Below, one piece after another: positions 4,620 to 14,978 of a stretch of DNA of 64,000 nucleotides. The stretch is from a bacterium (GTDB taxonomy: Bacteria > SAR324 > JACQKK01), in the NCBI GenBank assembly GCA_965240465.1, contig OZ251219.1, forward strand, positions 704,001 to 768,000, written 5' to 3'. The first letter of the stretch is position 1. Each line of letters opens with the position of its first letter. Both the position numbers and the translations under genes were made by a program. The notes under the pieces were generated by a model, which was not told the DNA's origin, ran no database searches, and was given only the letters and a program-made list of their open reading frames with translations.

Positions 4620-6428
4620 ATGAAAAAATTAACATCACTCTCAAGTATTTTAATGCTCACTCTGTTCTTAGCCAGCTGTGGCAGTAGCAAAGAGAAGAAA
4701 GATGTAGATACCGATGGCGATGGAATCAACGATTTCAAGACAGATGGCATCACCGAGAAAGACAAATGCCGAACAAGCCGAAACCCCGATTTTGTTAGCA
4801 GTCCCACCAACGACTACGATGGCGACGGTTGCGAAGACAGCACGGAAGACACCGATGACGACAATGATGGGATCAACGATGTTGATGCAAGCAACAACAC
4901 GCTAGATAAATGCCAACTAAGCGAAGACACCACCTTTAGAAGCACTGCCACCAACGACCGCGATCGCGACGGTTGCGAAGATGCTGGCGAAGACAAAGAT
5001 GACGACAATGATGGGATCAACGATGTTGATGCAGGCAACAACTTGCTAGATGAATGCCCCGAAGGCATAATTGGCATCGGAAATGACCTAGATAACGATG
5101 GCTGTAAAAACTCCAAAGACACCGATGATGACGGCGATAGAGTGCTTGACACTGTTGATGCCTGTCCCAGAGGCATAATTGGCACCAACGATCCCGATGC
5201 TGACAGCGACGGCTGTAAAGATTCAGTGGATGTTGATGATAACGGTAACGGTCTAATAGAAATTGCCACTGTTGAGGAGCTAAAGAACATCCGCTACCAA
5301 CTGGACGGCACTAGCTATAAAACAAGTAACACCGATGCAGGCTCTAATGCGGGTTGTTCTACTGCTGATCCCCTAGGTTGCAATGGCTATGAACTAATCG
5401 GGGACATTGATTTAGCAGACCTGATTAGTCCTGCTGTCAGCAACTTTGAGCCCATTGGACCATTAGGCAGTCCTTTTACGGCTATCTTTGAAGGTAATAA
5501 CTATACCATCGGCAACCTAATCATTAGCAATGACGCCAGATGCGTCGGTTTCTTTGGAGTCTTGGGTGCTGATAGCGAAGTCCGAAACTTGTCCTTTGCA
5601 AAAAGTGCAAAAAGTGCAACTGGCACAGGTTCAGTTATCAGTAGCAACGTCACCACTGGTAGTGTTAACTTTGGCAGAGTGGGAACCCTGGTAGGCGAAA
5701 ATAAAGGAACAATATCCAATGTTTCCACTGCTATCCCTGTTTCCGTTGATGTTTCCGTTACTGGTACCAAGCTGGTAGGCGGCTTGGTAGGTGAGAATAG
5801 TGCTGGTACCATACAAAACAGCCGAGCTACTGGAAATGTCACAGGCGGTAGTGGTGATGACAGAGTAGGTGGCTTGGTAGGTCAAGGTAAGGTCAAAAAC
5901 AGTTATGCTACCAACTTTGTCAACGGCGGTAGTGGTAATGACAGAGTAGGTGGCTTAGTGGGATTATCTTTTGGCATTAATAACAGTTATGCGACTGGTT
6001 CTGTCAACGGTGGTGAGGGTGATGACGAAGTAGGTGGCTTGGCGGGAGCTGGAGCAGCTATAACGAACAGCTACTCCATAGCCACTGTTGATGGGGGTGA
6101 GGGAGCCGATAAAATCAGTCACTTAGCTACCAGTATTGTGCAGGGTGCGAATACTGTTACTAGCAGCTATTATGATGATGATAATAGCAAACTGACGGGA
6201 GAAATCGTCCAAACCTTTGGGACTGGCAAAACCAGCCCCGAATTAAAAAAATTGACTGATACCAATACGAGCTGGAGTACTAACGACTGGAAATTCACTG
6301 CTGACAAATACCCCAGCCTGAAGTCCTACAAAGAAGATGCTAGCAATACCCAAATCGCAGGCACTCTACTCTGCGGGCAATTACCCGTGGCTGACTTCGT
6401 TCAGTGTCCCCCCCCCACTACGCCTTAG
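4620..6428 (+). CDS. Surface lipoprotein (gene C): Asp-rich repeats plus one GLUG-repeat domain
   Basis: LASC lipobox, DxDxDG repeats, VGGLVG motifs, shared C-terminal module. Confidence 0.85.
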   Translation: MKKLTSLSSILMLTLFLASCGSSKEKKDVDTDGDGINDFKTDGITEKDKCRTSRNPDFVSSPTNDYDGDGCEDSTEDTDDDNDGINDVDASNNTLDKCQLSEDTTFRSTATNDRDRDGCEDAGEDKDDDNDGINDVDAGNNLLDECPEGIIGIGNDLDNDGCKNSKDTDDDGDRVLDTVDACPRGIIGTNDPDADSDGCKDSVDVDDNGNGLIEIATVEELKNIRYQLDGTSYKTSNTDAGSNAGCSTADPLGCNGYELIGDIDLADLISPAVSNFEPIGPLGSPFTAIFEGNNYTIGNLIISNDARCVGFFGVLGADSEVRNLSFAKSAKSATGTGSVISSNVTTGSVNFGRVGTLVGENKGTISNVSTAIPVSVDVSVTGTKLVGGLVGENSAGTIQNSRATGNVTGGSGDDRVGGLVGQGKVKNSYATNFVNGGSGNDRVGGLVGLSFGINNSYATGSVNGGEGDDEVGGLAGAGAAITNSYSIATVDGGEGADKISHLATSIVQGANTVTSSYYDDDNSKLTGEIVQTFGTGKTSPELKKLTDTNTSWSTNDWKFTADKYPSLKSYKEDASNTQIAGTLLCGQLPVADFVQCPPPTTP

Positions 6429-6546
6429 GCTAGACCCCCCCCCCCTCCCCGACTGCTTGAAAAATAGAGCAAACCATTCTTCTGGGAGTGAGTTATACTC
6501 ACTCCCTTTCTTTTTTTGGGGACTGCATTTTGCTCTTTTAAGCACT
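6429..6546 (+). repeat. Intergenic array element copy 3
   Basis: Palindrome GGGAGTGAGT-tat-ACTCACTCCC at 6484-6506. The whole intergenic region is nearly identical to 486-799. Confidence 0.9.
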
Positions 6547-6745
6547 TGATAAACTTATCGCCAATGAAGTTCTGGCTGACTGTGTTCAGTGTGTAACCAT
6601 TAAACTTGACAGTAGCTAATTTGTGGTGCATAATAGGCGGTCTGGATTGTCTAGTGCTCTAAGGTACATCACCCTAAGGCACATCAATTTGTGGCGGTTT
6701 ATGTTAGATCATATCAGTCAAAATTAACGAATAGTAGGAAACTCA

Positions 6746-9700
6746 ATGAAAAAATTATCATTACTCTCAAGCATTTTTGTTATCACTCTGTTCTTAGCCA
6801 GCTGTGGCGGTAGTGAAGATAAGAAAGATGGCGGTAGCGAAGATAAGAAAGGTGTTGTAGACCCTGTTACCGTTACTGATGCCGATGGCGATGGCGTAGT
6901 CGACGATGATGACGATTGCGACAGTAGCCGCGAAGGATTCAAAAGTAATGACAACACTGACTACGATGGCGACGGCTGCGAAGATGACAGCACCGAAGAC
7001 ACCGATGACGACAATGATGAAGTAGACGACGGTGATGACGAGTGCCAAACAAGCATAAACTCCAACTTTGTCAGCGTTAGCACCAGCCCTGGCACTATCA
7101 ACGACTACGATGGCGACGGCTGCGAAGATGACAGCACCGAAGACACCGATGACGACAATGATGAGGTAGACGACGATGATGACGAGTGCCAAACAAGCAT
7201 AAACTCCAACTTTGTCAGCAGTGCCACCAATGACCGCGATAATGACGGTTGCGAAGATGCTGGCGAAGACAAAGATGACGACGACGACGGTCTAATAGAA
7301 CTCACCGCTACTACCCTAACCAACATCCGCTACCAACTGGACGGCACTACCTATAAAATAAATGCCAGCGATACAGGCTCTACCATGGGTTGTTCTACTG
7401 TTGATCCCATAGGTTGCAATGGCTATGAAATAACCAATGACATTGATCTTGTTGGCAACTTTGAACCCGTTGCAGGGAATTTCACCGCTATATTTGACGG
7501 CAATAATAATACCATCAATGACCTAACCATTGACAATAGCACTCAGTACACTGGCTTCTTCACTACGGTGGCTTCTGCTGGTGAAGTAAGAAGTATAAAC
7601 TTTGTTGGTGGCTCAATCACCAGTAGCTTTGGCAATTATGGCTATGTGGGAGTTCTGGCAGGCAAGAATGAGGGAACAGTATCCGATATTTCTGCCAATC
7701 TTTCGGTTTCTTCTGTTGGTGCGGGCCCAAATAACAATACAGGTGGCTTGATAGGCGAAAATAGTGGTATCCTGCAGGACAGCCAATCTTCTGGCAATAT
7801 CAGCGGCGGTACCGGTGACAGTGATAATGTGGGTGGCTTGGTAGGTTCCAATAATGGTGGCACCATCCAAAACAGCCGAGCCACTGGCAATGCCAGCGGC
7901 GGTACTGGTAACGGTGATAGTGTGGGTGGCTTGGTAGGTGCAAATAAATCCAGTAGTAGCATTCGAAACAGTTATGCGATCGGTTCTGCCAAGGGTAATG
8001 CTGGTAATGGTGATAGTGTGGGTGGCTTGGTAGGTACCAACACTGGTGGTAGCATCCAGAACAGTTATGCGATCGGTTCTGCCAACGGTGGTGATGGTGA
8101 TGACTATGTGGGTGGCTTAGTGGGACTTATTATTCAAGGAACCATCCTGAACAGTTATGCCTTAGGCGATGTGGATGGGGGCAATGGAGCAACCAGTGAT
8201 AGTGTGGGTCGCTTAATTGGTGGGGAGCAGCTTAGTACGATTTCAGGTAACTATTTTGATGAGAATAGTGGATTAATTGGTAAGGAAGAAAAAACCTTTG
8301 TAGCTTCCAAAGCTCTGGGCAAAACCAGCGACCAGCTGAAAGCCATCAACAATGTTGCCCCCACTACTGATACTACTTGCACTAGTGCTGGGGGAACTTG
8401 GGATGGCACTGCATGCACCGATGGGCATCTGAACCTTAGTACCAACAACTGGGATTTCACTGCTGACAAATACCCCAGCCTGAAATCCTACAAGGTGAAT
8501 GCCAGCGATGTCCAAGTTGAGGGTGTTTTACTCTGTAACCAATCCACCGACTTCGTTCAATGTCCTATGCCTGAGGCCGATGCCGATGGCGATGGCGTAA
8601 CCGACGACATTGACGTGGATGATGACAACGACGGTCTAATAGAACTCACCACTACTACCCTAACCAACATCCGCTACCAACTGGACGGCACTACCTATAA
8701 AATAAATGCCAGCGATACAGGCTCTACCATGGGTTGTTCTACTGTTGATCCCATAGGTTGCAATGGCTATGAAATAACCAATGACATTGATCTTGTTGGC
8801 AACTTTGAACCCGTTGCAGGGGATTTCACCGCTATATTTGACGGCAATAATAATACCATCACTAACCTAACCATTAGCAATAGCTCCTCGCCCACGGGCT
8901 TTTTTGCGGTTCTGGGTACTAATAGCACAGTCAAAAACTTATCCTTTACCAGTGGTTCAATTGCTGGCAGCGGTGGTGATGACTACGTGGGTGTCCTGGC
9001 AGGCACTAATGATGGAACAATATTCAATGTTTCCGCTGATATCTCGGTTTCTGCTGGCGATGGTAGCGACACAGTGGGCGGCTTGGTAGGTAAGAATAGT
9101 AGTATTGGCACCATCGTAAACAGCTCTGCCACTGGCACTGCTGATGGCGATGCTGGTCATGATCGGATAGGTGGCTTGGTAGGGGTTAATGAAGGAACAA
9201 TCCAAAATAGCTCTGCCACTGGCACTGCTAATGGCGGTGGCGATAGTGATTATGGGATAGGTAGCTTGGTAGGGAATAATGAGGGAACAATCCAAAATAG
9301 CTATGCCACTGGCACTGCTAATGGCGGTGATGGTGCTGATGGTGGAATAGGTGGCTTGGTAGGGGATAATAGTAGTACTGGCACCATCAGAAATAGCTAT
9401 GCCACCGGCATTGCTAATGGCAATGATAGTGATGATGCTGGGACAGGTGGCTTGGTAGGGGTTAATGAAGGAACAATCCAAAATAGCTATGCCACTGGCA
9501 ATGCTAATGGCGGTGCGGGTACTGACTATGTAGGCGGTTTGGTAGGGGGGAATGTTAGTAATGGCACCATCAGAAATAGCTATTCCTTAGGTGCTGTTGA
9601 TGGGGGGGGGAATGCTAGTTCCGGTGGTGTTGGTAGATTGGTTGGCTATAAAGATATAGGAGTAATTATTACCGGCAACTATTATAATGATACTAGTAGC

Positions 9701-9964
9701 GTATCTAATGGAGCCGAACTAACCCTTGGTAACACCGAGGCCAAAGGCAAAACCCTTGCTCAACTAAAAGACTTGGATGCCGATGATACCGAAACTGACT
9801 TTGGTGCGAGCAATCGCTGGAATGAATTCAACTGGAATTTCACTGACACCAAATACCCCAGCCTGAAGTCCTACAAGGTGGATGCCAACGATGCCCAAAT
9901 CGCAGGCGATCTACTCTGTGGGCAATTACCCGTAGCTGACTTCGTTCAGTGTACCAGTCCCTAG
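6746..9964 (+). CDS. Surface lipoprotein (gene B'), mosaic paralog of gene B with two GLUG domains
   Basis: N-terminus almost identical to gene B. Segment 7289-8483 nearly identical to 3140-4334. Confidence 0.85.
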   Translation: MKKLSLLSSIFVITLFLASCGGSEDKKDGGSEDKKGVVDPVTVTDADGDGVVDDDDDCDSSREGFKSNDNTDYDGDGCEDDSTEDTDDDNDEVDDGDDECQTSINSNFVSVSTSPGTINDYDGDGCEDDSTEDTDDDNDEVDDDDDECQTSINSNFVSSATNDRDNDGCEDAGEDKDDDDDGLIELTATTLTNIRYQLDGTTYKINASDTGSTMGCSTVDPIGCNGYEITNDIDLVGNFEPVAGNFTAIFDGNNNTINDLTIDNSTQYTGFFTTVASAGEVRSINFVGGSITSSFGNYGYVGVLAGKNEGTVSDISANLSVSSVGAGPNNNTGGLIGENSGILQDSQSSGNISGGTGDSDNVGGLVGSNNGGTIQNSRATGNASGGTGNGDSVGGLVGANKSSSSIRNSYAIGSAKGNAGNGDSVGGLVGTNTGGSIQNSYAIGSANGGDGDDYVGGLVGLIIQGTILNSYALGDVDGGNGATSDSVGRLIGGEQLSTISGNYFDENSGLIGKEEKTFVASKALGKTSDQLKAINNVAPTTDTTCTSAGGTWDGTACTDGHLNLSTNNWDFTADKYPSLKSYKVNASDVQVEGVLLCNQSTDFVQCPMPEADADGDGVTDDIDVDDDNDGLIELTTTTLTNIRYQLDGTTYKINASDTGSTMGCSTVDPIGCNGYEITNDIDLVGNFEPVAGDFTAIFDGNNNTITNLTISNSSSPTGFFAVLGTNSTVKNLSFTSGSIAGSGGDDYVGVLAGTNDGTIFNVSADISVSAGDGSDTVGGLVGKNSSIGTIVNSSATGTADGDAGHDRIGGLVGVNEGTIQNSSATGTANGGGDSDYGIGSLVGNNEGTIQNSYATGTANGGDGADGGIGGLVGDNSSTGTIRNSYATGIANGNDSDDAGTGGLVGVNEGTIQNSYATGNANGGAGTDYVGGLVGGNVSNGTIRNSYSLGAVDGGGNASSGGVGRLVGYKDIGVIITGNYYNDTSSVSNGAELTLGNTEAKGKTLAQLKDLDADDTETDFGASNRWNEFNWNFTDTKYPSLKSYKVDANDAQIAGDLLCGQLPVADFVQCTSP

Positions 9965-10008
9965 GCTAGACCCCCCCCCCTCAATCCCCCAGACTGCCTT
10001 ATAGGAAC

Positions 10009-10037
10009 TTGACAACGCCCCCTCTGCCTGCCATGAT
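10009..10037 (+). promoter_or_regulatory. Possible sigma70 promoter for array gene D
   Basis: TTGACA (10009-10014), 17 bp, CATGAT (10032-10037). Confidence 0.5.
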
Positions 10038-10104
10038 AAAAACTGACGATTTCTCAAAGCTGGGGAATGCCCTAGCCTTTTACACCAATATCGGAGGATT
10101 TCTG

Positions 10105-11931
10105 ATGAAAAAATTATCACTACTATCAGCCAGTTGTATTCTGGCTTTATTTTTAGCTAGCTGCGGGGGGGGTAGTAGCGGTGGTGGTGGTGGTGGTGGA
10201 TCTGTTGCCGACGCCGACGGCGACGGTCTAATAGAAATTGCCACTGCTGAGGAACTGAACAACATTCGCCATAATTTGGCAGGCACTAGTTATAATGATG
10301 GCACGAATGCTCCATCTAGTACGGGCTGTCCTAGATCTGGTTGTAATGGCTACGAACTAGCTGACGACATTGATCTTTCCTCCATTACCAACTTTGTTCC
10401 CATTGGACAATTAGGCAGTCCTTTCACGGCTATCTTTGAAGGTAATGATTACACCATCAGTAACCTAAACATTGCCACCGACAATACCACCTACTACACG
10501 GGATTCTTTGCGATCTCTAGAGGCAAAGTGCAAAACTTGTCCTTTGCAACAGGTTCAGTTGCCAGTAGCAATAATGGTGGTAGTAGGAGTAATCTCAACT
10601 GTGTAGGGGTTCTGGCAGGCAGAAATAATGGAATAATATCGGGTGTTTCTTCGGGGCCATCGGTTTCTGCTGGCACAGGTGACTATGACTGTGTAGGTGG
10701 CTTGGTAGGTAGCAATAATGGCACTATTCAAAATAGCTCTGTCACTAGCTCTGTCACTAGCTCTGTCACTGGCTCTGCTGATGGCGGTGGTGGTAACTAT
10801 GACTATGTGGGTGGCTTGGTAGGTTATAATGGAGGTAGCATCCAAAATAGCCGTGCCACTGCCACTGCCAATGGCGGTGGTGGTAACTATGACAATGTGG
10901 GTGGCTTGGTAGGTTATAATGGAGGTAGCATTGGTAATAGCTCTGCCACTGGCTCTGCTGATGGCGATGATGGTGACACTGACTCTGTGGGTGGCTTGGT
11001 AGGTTATAATACTGGCACCATCCGAGATAGTCATGCCACTGGCTCTGCTGATGGCGATGATGGTGAATATGACTCTGTGGGTGGCTTGGTGGGTAGTAAC
11101 TACGGCACCATCGGTAATAGCTCTGCCACTGGCATTGCCAGTGGCGGTGCTGGTAATGACAATGTGGGTGGCTTGGTAGGTGGTAATACTAGCACGATCC
11201 AGAACAGCTATGCCACTGGCATTGCCAGTGGCGGTGCTGGTAATGACTTTGTGGGTGGCTTGGTGGGTTATGATTTTAATGGCACCATCGGTAATAGTTA
11301 TGCCACTGGCAATGCCAATAGCGATGCTGGTAATGACTATGTGGGTGGCTTGGTGGGTTATGATTTTAATGGCACCATCGGTAATAGCTATGCCACTGGC
11401 AAAGCCAATGGCGGTGATGGTGATGACGCTGTGGGTGGCTTAGTGGGGAGTATTAATAATGATGAAAATGCTTTAACCATCGGTAATAGTTATGCCTTAG
11501 GCAATGTGGTTGGGGGCGAGGGAACCGATGAAGTGGGTCGCTTGATTGGAAAAAAAGGGACTGGGACTGGGACAATTACAATTACCAGCAACTATTATGA
11601 TAGTGATAGTGTCTTAGATGGCGAAAATCCCCTATCCCTTCCAGATACCGAAGCTCTGGGCAAAACCAGCGACCAGCTGAAAGCCAACAACAATGTTGCC
11701 CCCGATAGTGGTACTGCTTGCACTAGTGCTGGGGGAACTTGGGATAGCGGTGCATGCACCGATGGGCATCTGAACCTTAGTGCCAACAACTGGGATTTCA
11801 CTGACGGCAAATACCCCAGCTTAAAGTCCTACAAGGTGGATGCCAACGATACCCAAATCGCAGGCGATCTACTCTGTGGGCAATTACCCGTGGCTGACTT
11901 CGTTCAGTGTCCCCCCCCCACTACGCCTTAG
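10105..11931 (+). CDS. Surface lipoprotein (gene D) with an extended GLUG-repeat domain
   Basis: Start moved to ATG 10105 (GGAGG at 10093-10097, MKKLSLLS...LASC like its paralogs). About ten VGGLVG repeats and the shared C-terminal module. Confidence 0.85.
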   Translation: MKKLSLLSASCILALFLASCGGGSSGGGGGGGSVADADGDGLIEIATAEELNNIRHNLAGTSYNDGTNAPSSTGCPRSGCNGYELADDIDLSSITNFVPIGQLGSPFTAIFEGNDYTISNLNIATDNTTYYTGFFAISRGKVQNLSFATGSVASSNNGGSRSNLNCVGVLAGRNNGIISGVSSGPSVSAGTGDYDCVGGLVGSNNGTIQNSSVTSSVTSSVTGSADGGGGNYDYVGGLVGYNGGSIQNSRATATANGGGGNYDNVGGLVGYNGGSIGNSSATGSADGDDGDTDSVGGLVGYNTGTIRDSHATGSADGDDGEYDSVGGLVGSNYGTIGNSSATGIASGGAGNDNVGGLVGGNTSTIQNSYATGIASGGAGNDFVGGLVGYDFNGTIGNSYATGNANSDAGNDYVGGLVGYDFNGTIGNSYATGKANGGDGDDAVGGLVGSINNDENALTIGNSYALGNVVGGEGTDEVGRLIGKKGTGTGTITITSNYYDSDSVLDGENPLSLPDTEALGKTSDQLKANNNVAPDSGTACTSAGGTWDSGACTDGHLNLSANNWDFTDGKYPSLKSYKVDANDTQIAGDLLCGQLPVADFVQCPPPTTP

Positions 11932-12075
11932 GCTAGCCCCCCCCCCCCGACTGCACCCTAGGCTACACCCTCGGCAAACTGCTTGAAAAAAGCAACCGAG
12001 CATTTTTCTGGGAGTGAGTAGTACTCACTCCCTTTTTCTTTTTGGTAGGGGGGACAACCAATCTCTTTTAAGCAC
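11932..12075 (+). repeat. Intergenic array element copy 4
   Basis: Palindrome GGGAGTGAGT-agt-ACTCACTCCC at 12010-12032, ending in ctcttttaagcacttga as in copies 1 and 3. Confidence 0.9.
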
Positions 12076-12104
12076 TTGACAAACTGATCGCGATACCCTA
12101 CACT
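12076..12104 (+). promoter_or_regulatory. Near-consensus sigma70 promoter upstream of the large ncRNA
   Basis: TTGACA (12076-12081), 17 bp, TACACT (12099-12104). Predicted transcription start near 12111. Confidence 0.75.
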
Positions 12105-12193
12105 CACATTATCAAAACATTTTTAGTGATCCAAACTGCAGTTATGCCAAACCTAGGCTGGTAAGGATAGGTTCGCTAAGGGTTTTAGATAAC

Positions 12194-12783
12194 GAATGAA
12201 AGGGGATTGGTGGGTAGTGACCGCCTGAGGTTCCGTCATACCGAAGGGTGGATCATGTGTGTCCTTTGTGCCTTTTGGCATATGTTTTGGCACACGCAAA
12301 TGACGAGGAAGATGAGGAGGTAGATTGCACCGAAATCTCTTCTCCCCTCCGCAAATGAGTAGAACTTAGGCAAGTCCTAGATTCCTGCCATTAAGGGATT
12401 AAAACGCGGATTAAGCAATCGCAGAAACACTGGCGGGAGTTTAATAGCTCCGAAGGTCGTGAAACGCCGTTTCTGTTTTGGTAAGTACTTTTAGTACTTT
12501 TTCCAAGGTATAATTTCACGCCTAGTACCGAGCTGGGACTGAGCAATTTTAATTAATTGCCAGTTTGCATTGCTAGTTTGCATTGCTAGTTTGCATTGCC
12601 AGAGCGAAAGCGAACGCAAGTCTCGGTTCACTTAGTGGCATCCTTTCGGTAGCCACTAGCGAAGCTGAGGTCGTCATTGCAAACCGTAAGACTTCGCGGG
12701 AGGACCGTGCCATCATCTCAGGGTGAGGATTTTTGAGAATAATGGAGCAAGCGATGACATTCCTCACCAAGCCTCTTTCATTC
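12194..12783 (+). ncRNA. Large ornate structured RNA, ROOL-like (~590 nt)
   Basis: No credible ORF. Closing helix 12194-12205/12772-12783. Internal helices 12224-30/12716-22, 12422-28/12469-75, 12530-40/12619-29, 12633-39/12652-58, 12659-64/12692-97, 12722-29/12761-68. Pseudoknot-type pairings 12458-64/12514-20 and 12673-80/12751-58. Motifs GUAGAUUGCACCGA, UAAGCAAUCGCAGAAAC, GUUUCUG and GUAAG occur in the order I recall for ROOL RNAs. Confidence 0.8.
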
Positions 12784-12860
12784 TACCCCCCCAAAAAAAC
12801 CCACCCACCCCCAAAAAAACCCCTACCCCCCTCACCTTGATTTCTCCATCACCCTGCATC

Positions 12861-12981
12861 CCCCTCCCCCCCGACTGCTTGAAGAAGGCAGCCCTAGCAT
12901 TTGGGAGTGAGTCTCACTCCCTTTCTTTTTGGTGGGGGGACAACACCAATCTCTTTTAAGCACTTGATAAATTGATCGCGA
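12861..12981 (+). repeat. Intergenic array element copy 5 (after the ncRNA, abutting the uvrB stop)
   Basis: GGGAGTGAG-t-CTCACTCCC at 12903-12921. Tail ggggggacaac..caatctcttttaagcacttga.aaa.tgatcgcgat shared with copy 4. Confidence 0.9.
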
Positions 12982-12986
12982 TGTTT

Positions 12987-14978
12987 TTAGTAGATTCCCA
13001 GATTTTCCTTTTTAATACGAGTGATTTCATCACGGATATCGGCAGCTTGTTCAAATTTCAGGTTTTTGGCGGCTAGTTTCATGGATTTTTCCAGTTGTTT
13101 GACTTCTTTGAGCCAGTTTAGGTTAGATTGATGGTTTTTGGAGATAAGGGTATCAGGGGGAGATTTTTTTGATTTGGCAGGGGTTTTTTCAGCCGAGCTC
13201 AGTTGAGTTTCCAGTATTCTTTGGACGGCTCGGGGAGTGATGTGATGTTTTTTGTTGTAGTTTTGCTGGATGTTTCGGCGGCGATTAGTTTCATTGATAA
13301 CAGATTGCATGGAGGGGGTGATTTTTTCGGCATAGAAGATGATGCGTCCTTTTTCGTGTCTGGCGGCTCGTCCGCAGGTTTGCATAAGGGAGCGTTCAGA
13401 GCGTAGGAAGCCTTCCTTATCGGCATCAAGGATGGCGACTAGGGAGACTTCAGGGAGGTCTAGTCCTTCTCTTAGGAGATTGATGCCTACGAGTACATCA
13501 AAGGCTCCGCTACGGAGGTTGCGTATTATTTCGGCTCTTTCCAGGGCGTTGACTTCTGAGTGCATCCAGCATATTTTGATTCCGAGTTTTTCATAATAGG
13601 TTGCGATGTCTTCAGCCATTCTTTTGGTGAGGGTGATGATGAGTACTCGTTCATTTTTTTGGGAGCATAGTCGTAGTTCGTGTAGGAGGTGGTCTATTTG
13701 TTGGTTAGCTGGTAGCACTTTGATGGGGGGATCGAGCAATCCAGTGGGTCGGATGAGCAGTTCTAGGGGTTTGCTTATTTTGCGTTCATAGGGTCCAGGG
13801 GTAGCAGAGAGGTAGATGGCTTGGACGATTCTTTGTTGATATTCTTCAAAGGTTAGGGGTCGGTTATCCAGGGCACTGGGTAGTCGGAAGCCGTGTGCGA
13901 CGAGGGTTTTTTTTCTAGCTTGGTCGCCTTTGGACATTCCAGCTAGTTGTGGGAAGCTGACGTGGCTTTCATCAACGAATAGCAGGGAGCGAGTGGGAAA
14001 GTAGTCTATCAATGTTTCTGGGGGGCTACCGGGTTTTCTATTATGTAGCCAGCGGCTGTAGTTTTCTATTCCCTTGCAAAAGCCGGTTTCTTCCATCATT
14101 TCTAGATCAAAGTTGGTGCGTTGTTCCAGTCTTTGTGCTTCTAGCAGTTTGTTTTCTTTATGGAGATTGATTAATTGTTCAGCGAGTTCTTCCCTGATAG
14201 AGTTCAAGGCATGCTTCATTTCACTGGGAGGCGATACATAATGAGAAGCAGGGTAGATAGCAATCTTGCTAAGTAGTTCTACCTTATTGCCTCTTACGGT
14301 ATCTATACGGCTGATGGCTTCTATTTCGTCGCCAAAGAACTCTATCCTTATTGCGTGTTCGCTTTCGGCAGGGAACACTTCTACCACATCTCCCCGTACC
14401 CGAAATACTCCCCGATGAAAATCGTAATCATTACGTGTGTATTGAACATCCACCAGCCGTAGTAGCAAGGTATCTCGGGAGAGTTTCTCGCCTACTTGTA
14501 CGTACACCAGCATTTTCCGATAAATCTCGGGCGAACCCAATCCATAAATGCATGACACACTAGCTACGATTACCACATCTTCTCGCTCCAACAGGGATTT
14601 GGTAGCCGAAAGACGCATGCGATCAAGTTCATCATTGATGGAAGCATCTTTTTCAATGTATAAGTCTTGGGCGGGGAGATAGGCTTCGGGTTGGTAGTAG
14701 TCGTAATAGCTGACGAAGTACTCCACTGCATTATCGGGGAAGAATCTCTTAAACTCTTGGTAGAGTTGGGCTGCTAGGATTTTGTTAGGAGCGATTACTA
14801 ATCCTGGACGCTGGAGATTTGCTATGACATTAGCCATAAGAAAGGTTTTACCAGAGCCAGTAACTCCAGCTAGGGTTTGATGCTGAACTCCAGAGGAGAA
14901 TCCAGTACATAGTTTATCAACCACCTCAGCTTGGGGCGGAGTAAGAGAGAACTGCGATTGCAGACGGAATTTATTCAT
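12987..14978 (-). CDS. uvrB: Excinuclease ABC subunit B
   Basis: GVTGSGKT, FVSYYDYYQPEAY, GINLLREGLDLPEVSLVAILDADKEGFLRS, C-terminal UVR domain. Confidence 0.98.
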   Translation of the reverse strand: MNKFRLQSQFSLTPPQAEVVDKLCTGFSSGVQHQTLAGVTGSGKTFLMANVIANLQRPGLVIAPNKILAAQLYQEFKRFFPDNAVEYFVSYYDYYQPEAYLPAQDLYIEKDASINDELDRMRLSATKSLLEREDVVIVASVSCIYGLGSPEIYRKMLVYVQVGEKLSRDTLLLRLVDVQYTRNDYDFHRGVFRVRGDVVEVFPAESEHAIRIEFFGDEIEAISRIDTVRGNKVELLSKIAIYPASHYVSPPSEMKHALNSIREELAEQLINLHKENKLLEAQRLEQRTNFDLEMMEETGFCKGIENYSRWLHNRKPGSPPETLIDYFPTRSLLFVDESHVSFPQLAGMSKGDQARKKTLVAHGFRLPSALDNRPLTFEEYQQRIVQAIYLSATPGPYERKISKPLELLIRPTGLLDPPIKVLPANQQIDHLLHELRLCSQKNERVLIITLTKRMAEDIATYYEKLGIKICWMHSEVNALERAEIIRNLRSGAFDVLVGINLLREGLDLPEVSLVAILDADKEGFLRSERSLMQTCGRAARHEKGRIIFYAEKITPSMQSVINETNRRRNIQQNYNKKHHITPRAVQRILETQLSSAEKTPAKSKKSPPDTLISKNHQSNLNWLKEVKQLEKSMKLAAKNLKFEQAADIRDEITRIKKENLGIY

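Follow-up and report, generated by a model that had tools for sequence, protein, structure and literature searches.

A putative family of large structured RNAs associated with GLUG-repeat lipoprotein gene arrays in a SAR324 genome

A stretch of 64,000 nucleotides of contig OZ251219.1 from the SAR324 assembly GCA_965240465.1 (positions 704,001 to 768,000, hereafter the window, whose own coordinates are used unless the genome is named) was analysed around the 1055 non-coding bases that separate the stop of a GLUG-repeat lipoprotein gene, gene D (11931), from the stop of the convergent gene uvrB (12987). Modelled folding and covariation indicate that positions 12108-12786 of the plus strand hold a structured RNA gene of about 680 nt, which belongs to a set of seven paralogs within the genome (1.6 Mb). 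Taken as a whole, the locus is probably an independent large structured RNA gene accompanied by composite repeats, each made of a terminator and a promoter stub, and not a recombination device; we hold this reading with good, though not full, confidence. The original prediction, made from the letters of the sequence, had placed a ROOL-like RNA in a slot of a cassette array of surface lipoprotein genes, where it would have been captured, or could be excised, by recombination between the flanking repeats and would use a promoter derived from them. The "cassette slot" is ordinary gene-family architecture, and the interesting object is the RNA family itself, which is new to the Rfam library.

The RNA in the window (R1) was recognised by its folding, its covariation and a covariance-model score of 205.5 bits, and its start was placed by the position of the -10 box upstream. 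It is predicted to consist of a 5' hairpin domain (12109-12192) and a closing helix formed by 12194-12214 with 12763-12783, between which an invariant core, GAGGAGGT..TGCACCGAAATCTCTT, is located at about 12311-12338. A variable loop carries a short tandem repeat (12562-12606, plus strand) with the 15-nt unit AGTTTGCATTGC, which is present in three copies in R1, two in R2 and none in R3. The folding z-score was -4.79 for the plus strand and -3.37 for the minus strand. In an RNAalifold consensus of R1-R5, 190 pairs were predicted, with 94.7% of the cells paired, as against 38-46% when the partners were slid, and compensatory changes were found in 20 of the 190 pairs, compared with a mean of 6.3 in shuffled alignments and 3-8 with slid partners; none of 500 shuffles reached 20. 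The core of 172 positions that is shared by all seven paralogs gave a similar picture, with 16 compensatory pairs of 46, a number reached by none of 500 shuffles. According to the pair table, 28 of the 190 pairs are predominantly G-U and would be A-C mismatches on the opposite strand, which argues that the plus strand is the RNA. The non-coding region contains 19 open reading frames (ORFs) of at least 25 amino acids, the longest of 78 amino acids, so that the compensatory helices, the stability above that of shuffled sequences and the shortness of the reading frames agree with what is generally expected of a structured non-coding RNA.

The seven paralogs were found by BLAST and by a covariance model of the 172-position core, with scores of 208, 205.5, 200, 170, 155, 91 and 50 bits. 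R2 (genome 876.9 kb, minus strand) is 96% identical to R1, R3 (348.0 kb) 91%, R4 (530.7 kb) 73% and R5 (1210.7 kb) 68%, while R6 (1572 kb) and R7 (1328.6 kb) are shorter forms of about 365 and 230 nt, respectively. Three features are kept in all seven: the closing helix, in which GAAUGAAAGGG pairs with CCCUUUCAUUC, a hairpin with the conserved loop UGAGGUUC...CCG, and the invariant segment GAGGAGGU-(4 to 6 nt)-UGCACCGNAAUCUCUU. The extra domains of the long forms are inserted within the closing helix. In R7, possibly a copy in decay, the 5' hairpin domain is replaced by a tandem array of a 16-nt unit (GCATTAGAACATGCAA, about ten copies, genome 1328370-1328545), which lies between the promoter box and the core.

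The label ROOL, which the original prediction had attached to the RNA, could not be upheld. At gathering score, none of the 4227 families of the Rfam library matched anywhere in the window; at E<=10, the region 11800-13100 gave no ROOL, GOLLD or OLE but only five chance-level matches, and at E<=1 the six other paralog loci gave none. GOLLD, OLE, HEARO, group I and II introns, RNase P and 6S RNA were likewise without an Rfam match in the window or at the paralog loci. ROOL, GOLLD and OLE are described as large ornate bacterial non-coding RNAs (PMC5737381; PMC12286853), and ROOL in particular as averaging 581 nt, rich in junctions, without known function, often near transfer RNA (tRNA) genes and in prophages, and reported in three phyla (PMC5737381). 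R1 falls in a similar size class, which might speak for a divergent member of ROOL or GOLLD, but besides the absence of Rfam matches no tRNA gene was present in the 3.1-kb loci around any of the seven paralogs (that is, within 1.5 kb), and no blastn match to the RNA was found among 50,697 phage records, so that such a membership seems extremely improbable. The RNase P RNA of the genome is encoded elsewhere (225900-226344, 256.8 bits); no 6S RNA was found in the genome by the family model, a negative of little weight, since the control of this model was positive in only 5 of 14 named genomes.

Transcription of R1 would start from a promoter with the -35 box TTGACA (12076-12081), a 17-nt spacer and the -10 box TACACT (12099-12104), which agrees with the consensus at 10 of 12 positions and thus has the sequence of a sigma-70-type promoter. 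These boxes lie in the type-I tail (12043-12104, plus strand) of the fourth of five copies in the window of the repeat that separates the lipoprotein genes. The original prediction had correctly read the -35 box as TTGACA in copy 4 and as TTGATA in copies 1, 3 and 5 (600, 6546 and 12964), and had concluded that the RNA uses a promoter derived from the element. This conclusion is not supported. The box CTTGACAAAC occurs ten times in the genome, seven of them upstream of the seven RNA paralogs, and R5, R6 and R7 possess it without a terminator hairpin or an adjoining lipoprotein gene, which argues that the promoter belongs to the RNA family and that the "tail" of the element is a stub of the RNA promoter. 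The whole arrangement of -35 and -10 boxes is kept in R1-R6, the latter box being TAYACT or TAGATT; in R7, TTGACA-17-TACGAT is located about 270 nt upstream and is set off from the core by the 16-nt tandem repeat. Genome-wide, the box reads TTGACA in all seven RNA-linked cases and TTGATA in all eight tails without RNA, although these eight represent about two independent lineages and not eight events. Seven of the eight belong to a second subtype (GGGGACTGCRTTTTGCTC...), which continues with 30 nt derived from the 3' end of a gene, followed by the promoter of the next gene, and the eighth is copy 5.

The occurrence of several copies in a small genome, together with their absence from every relative searched, might also be expected of a non-autonomous mobile or selfish non-coding repeat, either similar to a miniature inverted-repeat transposable element or a remnant of an intron or retroelement, with no function as an RNA gene. 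However, the promoter is conserved at all copies, the helices carry compensatory changes, the core and closing helix are common to variants of about 230, 365 and 680 nt, and paralogs that have diverged down to 68-73% identity still keep the structure. No reverse transcriptase was found in the genome, and none of the loci matches an intron family of Rfam. Such an origin is therefore highly unlikely.

As to the repeat itself, a consensus scan of the window detected five occurrences of the hairpin GGGAGTGAGT..ACTCACTCCC with a T run directly behind it (538, 4471, 6484, 12010 and 12903); the hairpins have 8-10 pairs, 5-6 of which are G-C, as in intrinsic terminators. The first four hairpins stand 50-90 nt past the stop of a GLUG gene, which suggests that what forms the core of the "element" is an intrinsic terminator belonging to the array genes. 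Copy 4 would thus be composed of a terminator half (11977-12042, plus strand), predicted to be the intrinsic terminator of gene D, whose 10-pair hairpin (12010-12032) contains 6 G-C pairs and runs into TTTTTCTTTT, and of the tail that forms the RNA promoter. Copy 5 has the same two parts on the plus strand, a terminator half (12866-12930) with a short-loop hairpin at 12903-12921 followed by TTTCTTTTT, and a type-I tail stub (12931-12984). This stub has TTGATA (12964-12969) as a mutated -35 box, and its homology breaks off at GATCGCGAT; it does not extend as far as a -10 box and lies three bases short of the uvrB stop codon. Several observations of the original prediction on this repeat were borne out. 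The RNA is bracketed by copies 4 and 5, whose hairpins flank the non-coding stretch, and within the window the private tail GGGGGGACAAC..AATCTCTTTTAAGCACTTGA.AAA.TGATCGCGAT is found in these two copies only, the tail being GGGGACTGCRTTTTGCTCTTTTAAGCACTTGATAAACTTATCGCCAAT in copies 1 and 3 and copy 2 diverging past GCTCTC. In an alignment of copy 4 (about 11977-12095) with copy 5 (about 12873-12982), 100 of 120 columns are identical, with a longest exact run of 23 nt and a BLAST E-value within the genome of 2.1e-26. The element is also tied to the array loci as supposed: all 19 BLAST copies at E<=5e-12 lie within three lipoprotein arrays (genome 321.8-350.9 kb, 704.5-717.0 kb and 871.5-908.5 kb), and it is thus not a genome-wide dispersed repeat.

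With regard to the family, the bracketing of the RNA by two copies is an isolated case, since R1 is the only one of the seven paralogs that the element flanks at both ends. Behind R2 and R3 there are a C/A-rich trailer, a C run with a GACTGC-like box, a second promoter and the next lipoprotein gene, with no array terminator in between; after R2 only a weak, generic terminator-like hairpin is present, within the leader of the next gene. The high-identity homology of R1 with the R2 locus (11788-12864, 88.8%) ends just before copy 5. In turn, the promoter and start of gene D (10006-10226) are 87.8% identical to the stretch just after R3, the gene bodies being about 73-78% identical, which suggests that the unit of promoter, gene, terminator, RNA promoter, RNA and trailer is circularly permuted between arrays, as would be expected of a tandem repeat. 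The terminator half of copy 5, with its unusual short-loop hairpin, shares 92% identity over a length of 63 nt with the terminator belonging to the gene that comes after R3 (array A), and 84% identity with that of the corresponding gene at R2. This fits the loss of a gene and not the capture of an RNA, and the bracket is best read as a probable relic of a tandem unit of gene, terminator, promoter and RNA that lost its gene.

A mobile cassette of the Campbell type, in which the RNA is captured or excised via the flanking repeats and borrows the promoter of the element, would draw on the direct repeats of about 120 nt with 83% identity and a 23-nt exact core, and on the resemblance of the predicted excision product, a terminator with a TTGATA tail, to the solo elements, copies 1 and 3. 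Against it stand the single bracketed paralog, the promoter box at all seven paralogs, three of them far from any element, and the origin of the copy 5 terminator suggested by its likeness to that of a gene following the RNA elsewhere. Nor was a junction of copy 4 with copy 5 seen: it was absent from the 15 joints listed (there were 64 others) in assembled contigs of four public runs over the region 9500-14000, where the contig pieces within repeats are short and contigs drop rare variants. No recombinase gene is located nearby; the genome contains only two matches to tyrosine recombinases (PF00589), at 309 kb and 1446 kb, and the window none. We therefore consider such a cassette unlikely.

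The two tyrosine recombinases may be the usual Xer pair. One of the matches, at genome 309093-309599, precedes the largest GLUG cluster (310.5-350.8 kb by motif count) by about 1 kb, a position that could be due to chance. An integron cassette array was considered as well and rejected, since no IntI-type recombinase is found beside the arrays and what recurs between the genes is a terminator hairpin with its T run instead of an attC site.

The preferred reading, an independent RNA gene among composite terminator and promoter-stub repeats, implies the following history. The RNA would be transcribed from its family's own sigma-70-type promoter, TTGACA-17-TACACT, and the "element" would consist of the conserved 3' end of a GLUG gene, the intrinsic terminator of that gene and the upstream half of the RNA promoter. 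The ancestral array unit may have comprised a second promoter, a GLUG gene, a terminator, the RNA promoter, the RNA and a C-rich trailer. Unequal homologous recombination or tandem duplication would then have amplified the lipoprotein genes and copied terminators and promoter stubs with them, while the RNA stayed at one per array. A next unit would once have followed R1; its gene may have been lost, probably between two boxes made of a C run and GACTGC, and its RNA at the edge of the array. In this way the copy 5 terminator would have been left behind R1, where it would now serve as the terminator of the RNA, with a dead promoter stub (TTGATA, without a -10 box) alongside. At the other loci the 3' end is possibly formed by Rho acting on the C-rich, G-poor trailer.

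Several points weigh against this reading. The transcription, the ends and the strand of the RNA are deduced from sequence and predicted fold, and the covariation comes solely from paralogs of one genome, which amount to effectively 3-5 independent sequences; moreover, the alignment behind the 16 compensatory pairs of the seven-paralog core was fitted to the covariance model, which favours structure. R7 is a poor fit: the first model gave its core a score of no more than 50 bits, and the tandem repeat stands in place of the 5' domain. The identical C-to-T change from TTGACA to TTGATA is present in both subtypes of the RNA-less promoter stub (600-605, 6546-6551 and 12964-12969), which could reflect parallel inactivation or gene conversion. 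The direct repeat of 120 nt and 83% identity could in principle mediate rare excision, and the order of events, gene loss or insertion, is reconstructed from present-day homologies.

All four array genes in the window match the GLUG family of Pfam (PF07581) above the gathering score, with E-values from 1.7e-9 to 1.9e-32, and a simple motif count found 54 GLUG-type ORFs in 11 clusters, which occupy 8.8% of the 1.6-Mb genome. Each of the three terminator-bearing arrays holds exactly one RNA, near its downstream end. Four of the seven paralogs lie directly downstream of a GLUG lipoprotein gene; in the case of R4 this gene stands alone, and half of the terminator hairpin has been retained. Five of the seven are within 4 kb of a GLUG ORF, for which the naive binomial probability is about 0.001, or 0.026 when R1-R3 are counted once. 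The original prediction had suggested that the adhesin-like genes and the RNA might be functionally linked. The physical side of this tie is borne out by the position of the paralogs directly behind GLUG genes and by the single RNA in each array, while the regulatory side, though possible, found no support: the predicted pairing of the RNA with the 5' regions of 32 lipoprotein genes had a mean energy of -54.5 kcal/mol as compared with -53.7 kcal/mol for 200 other genes, i.e. showed no enrichment. A literature search on GLUG, lipoprotein and noncoding RNA brought up no related paper. The tie is at least historical, through a shared ancestral unit, and perhaps regulatory.

One specific form of regulation would make the RNA a giant cis-acting leader, that is, an element of the 5' untranslated region that controls the downstream lipoprotein gene. 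At R2 and R3 the lack of an array terminator between the RNA and the next lipoprotein gene is compatible with this. Nevertheless, the genes that follow R2 and R3 each possess their own promoter-like site, no gene on the same strand comes after R1, where a terminator is succeeded by the convergent uvrB, and R5, R6 and R7 are not followed by lipoprotein genes. The RNA's pairing with lipoprotein genes, which is no better than with other genes, does not favour a leader either, and we judge it distinctly unlikely.

The distribution of the RNA is narrow. None of 40 relatives contained it by BLAST and covariance model, and in the same-genus genome, when searched alone, there was no match at E<=10. 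In wider searches, where more than 40 genomes were covered with stricter filters and only part of the first-look candidates was scored, it was not detected among 87 further genomes of the class or among 71 further phylum members with completeness of at least 80%; the genomes of the class seem to make up the whole phylum set compared. Strict motif scans gave no match in metagenome contigs and none in viral contigs, and a second motif gave five metagenome loci, all of them chance matches by the covariance model, and no viral locus. A loose degenerate motif returned at least 117 chance matches in genome contigs, and the covariance model, applied to 100 of 117 loci, yielded four partial matches of at most 17.6 bits. 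There was no match to the RNA in the plasmid collection. GLUG motifs were also absent from the same-genus genome and from all 18 family relatives searched, which suggests that, among the genomes searched, the source genome alone has the RNA family and the lipoprotein expansion. The same-genus genome has a uvrB with 76% protein identity in a different neighbourhood, with no GLUG match, and hence no empty-site allele is readable from it. In two runs of a second study, short contigs of 151 and 175 nt and of low depth are identical or nearly so to the parts 12114-12263 and 12619-12792 of the RNA, which indicates that this bacterium, or one very closely related to it, is present elsewhere too. Genes for sigma-54 and LpxB in the genome show that it comes from a Gram-negative bacterium.

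Upstream of the RNA, gene D (10105-11931, plus strand) starts with an ATG behind GGAGGA and encodes a signal peptide that ends in the lipobox LASC; its product matches PF07581 (Glug) in seven stretches with an E-value of 1.2e-26. A promoter-like site, TTGACA-17-CATGAT, precedes it (10009-10037, plus strand), and a matching module follows the RNA in array A. The gene is followed by a junction box of a C run and GACTGC (11932-11976, plus strand), which begins both the terminator modules and the second-promoter modules. Between R1 and copy 5 there is a C/A-rich, G-poor trailer (12787-12865, plus strand) common to R1, R2 and R3, and the array ends at uvrB (12987-14978, minus strand; NCBIfam NF003673, E 2.5e-300), which is convergent with the RNA.

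The lipoprotein genes themselves contain several simple repeats. A run of eight G residues at 10165-10172, just after the lipobox cysteine codon of gene D, has similar counterparts in paralogous array genes (for example, at genome 348.8 kb) and looks like a slipped-strand switch that might turn single lipoproteins on and off. C runs at 465-475, 6408-6418 and 11911-11921 are located four codons ahead of the stops of array genes and are followed by TAGGCTAG; two stop codons in different frames come after these runs, so that a change of run length would alter only the last few residues. Near-perfect tandem repeats of 144 bp (98-99% identical) are present inside two lipoprotein genes (869-1888 and 6815-7258) and encode aspartate-rich stretches (GATGACGAC...).

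As to the function of the RNA, our guess is a trans-acting structural or scaffold RNA, in which the invariant and partly single-stranded segment GAGGAGGU...UGCACCGNAAUCUCUU would be the putative binding or recognition site. A bolder proposal, to which we give only a small chance, is a new class of large ornate bacterial RNA with seven modular paralogs (about 230-680 nt) that is functionally coupled to the lipoprotein family filling about 9% of a reduced genome. If it were true, surface variation might be under RNA-based control, for example with one RNA per array setting lipoprotein expression, or the RNA might scaffold, or assemble with, the products of these genes. Large, intricately folded bacterial RNAs without known function are rare, and the known classes ROOL, GOLLD and OLE have each been structurally surprising. 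The seven paralogs in three size grades represent a natural deletion series, which defines a core of about 230 nt, and the candidate class also offers a clear promoter and recurs physically next to members of a surface-lipoprotein family that has expanded hugely within a small genome. The locus illustrates, moreover, how repeats that look like those of a "cassette" can be mere terminators and promoter stubs copied with duplicated genes.

Like ROOL, GOLLD and OLE, the RNA is several hundred nucleotides long, is predicted to have many helices and multistem junctions, several helices being supported by covariation, and appears to be an independent gene; unlike them, it matches none of their models, is not near tRNA genes and has no phage match, and forms seven paralogs (about 230, 365 and 680 nt) in one 1.6-Mb genome; whereas ROOL is reported in three phyla, it was found in that genome only. 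The locus resembles integron cassette arrays in that a short element recurs between consecutive genes, but no integrase is present beside the arrays, and the genes are paralogous products of duplication, whereas integron cassettes carry captured genes with no mutual relationship. Variable surface lipoproteins are encoded by tandem gene families in small host-associated genomes, as in the vsp, vlp and vsa loci of Mycoplasma. The arrays described here differ from those loci in that no site-specific invertase was seen, the spacer is an intrinsic terminator with a stub of an RNA promoter, and three arrays contain one RNA gene each. They resemble them in the rows of paralogous lipoprotein genes with repeated spacers, in the homopolymer runs in or beside the genes and in the signs of unequal recombination and gene conversion.

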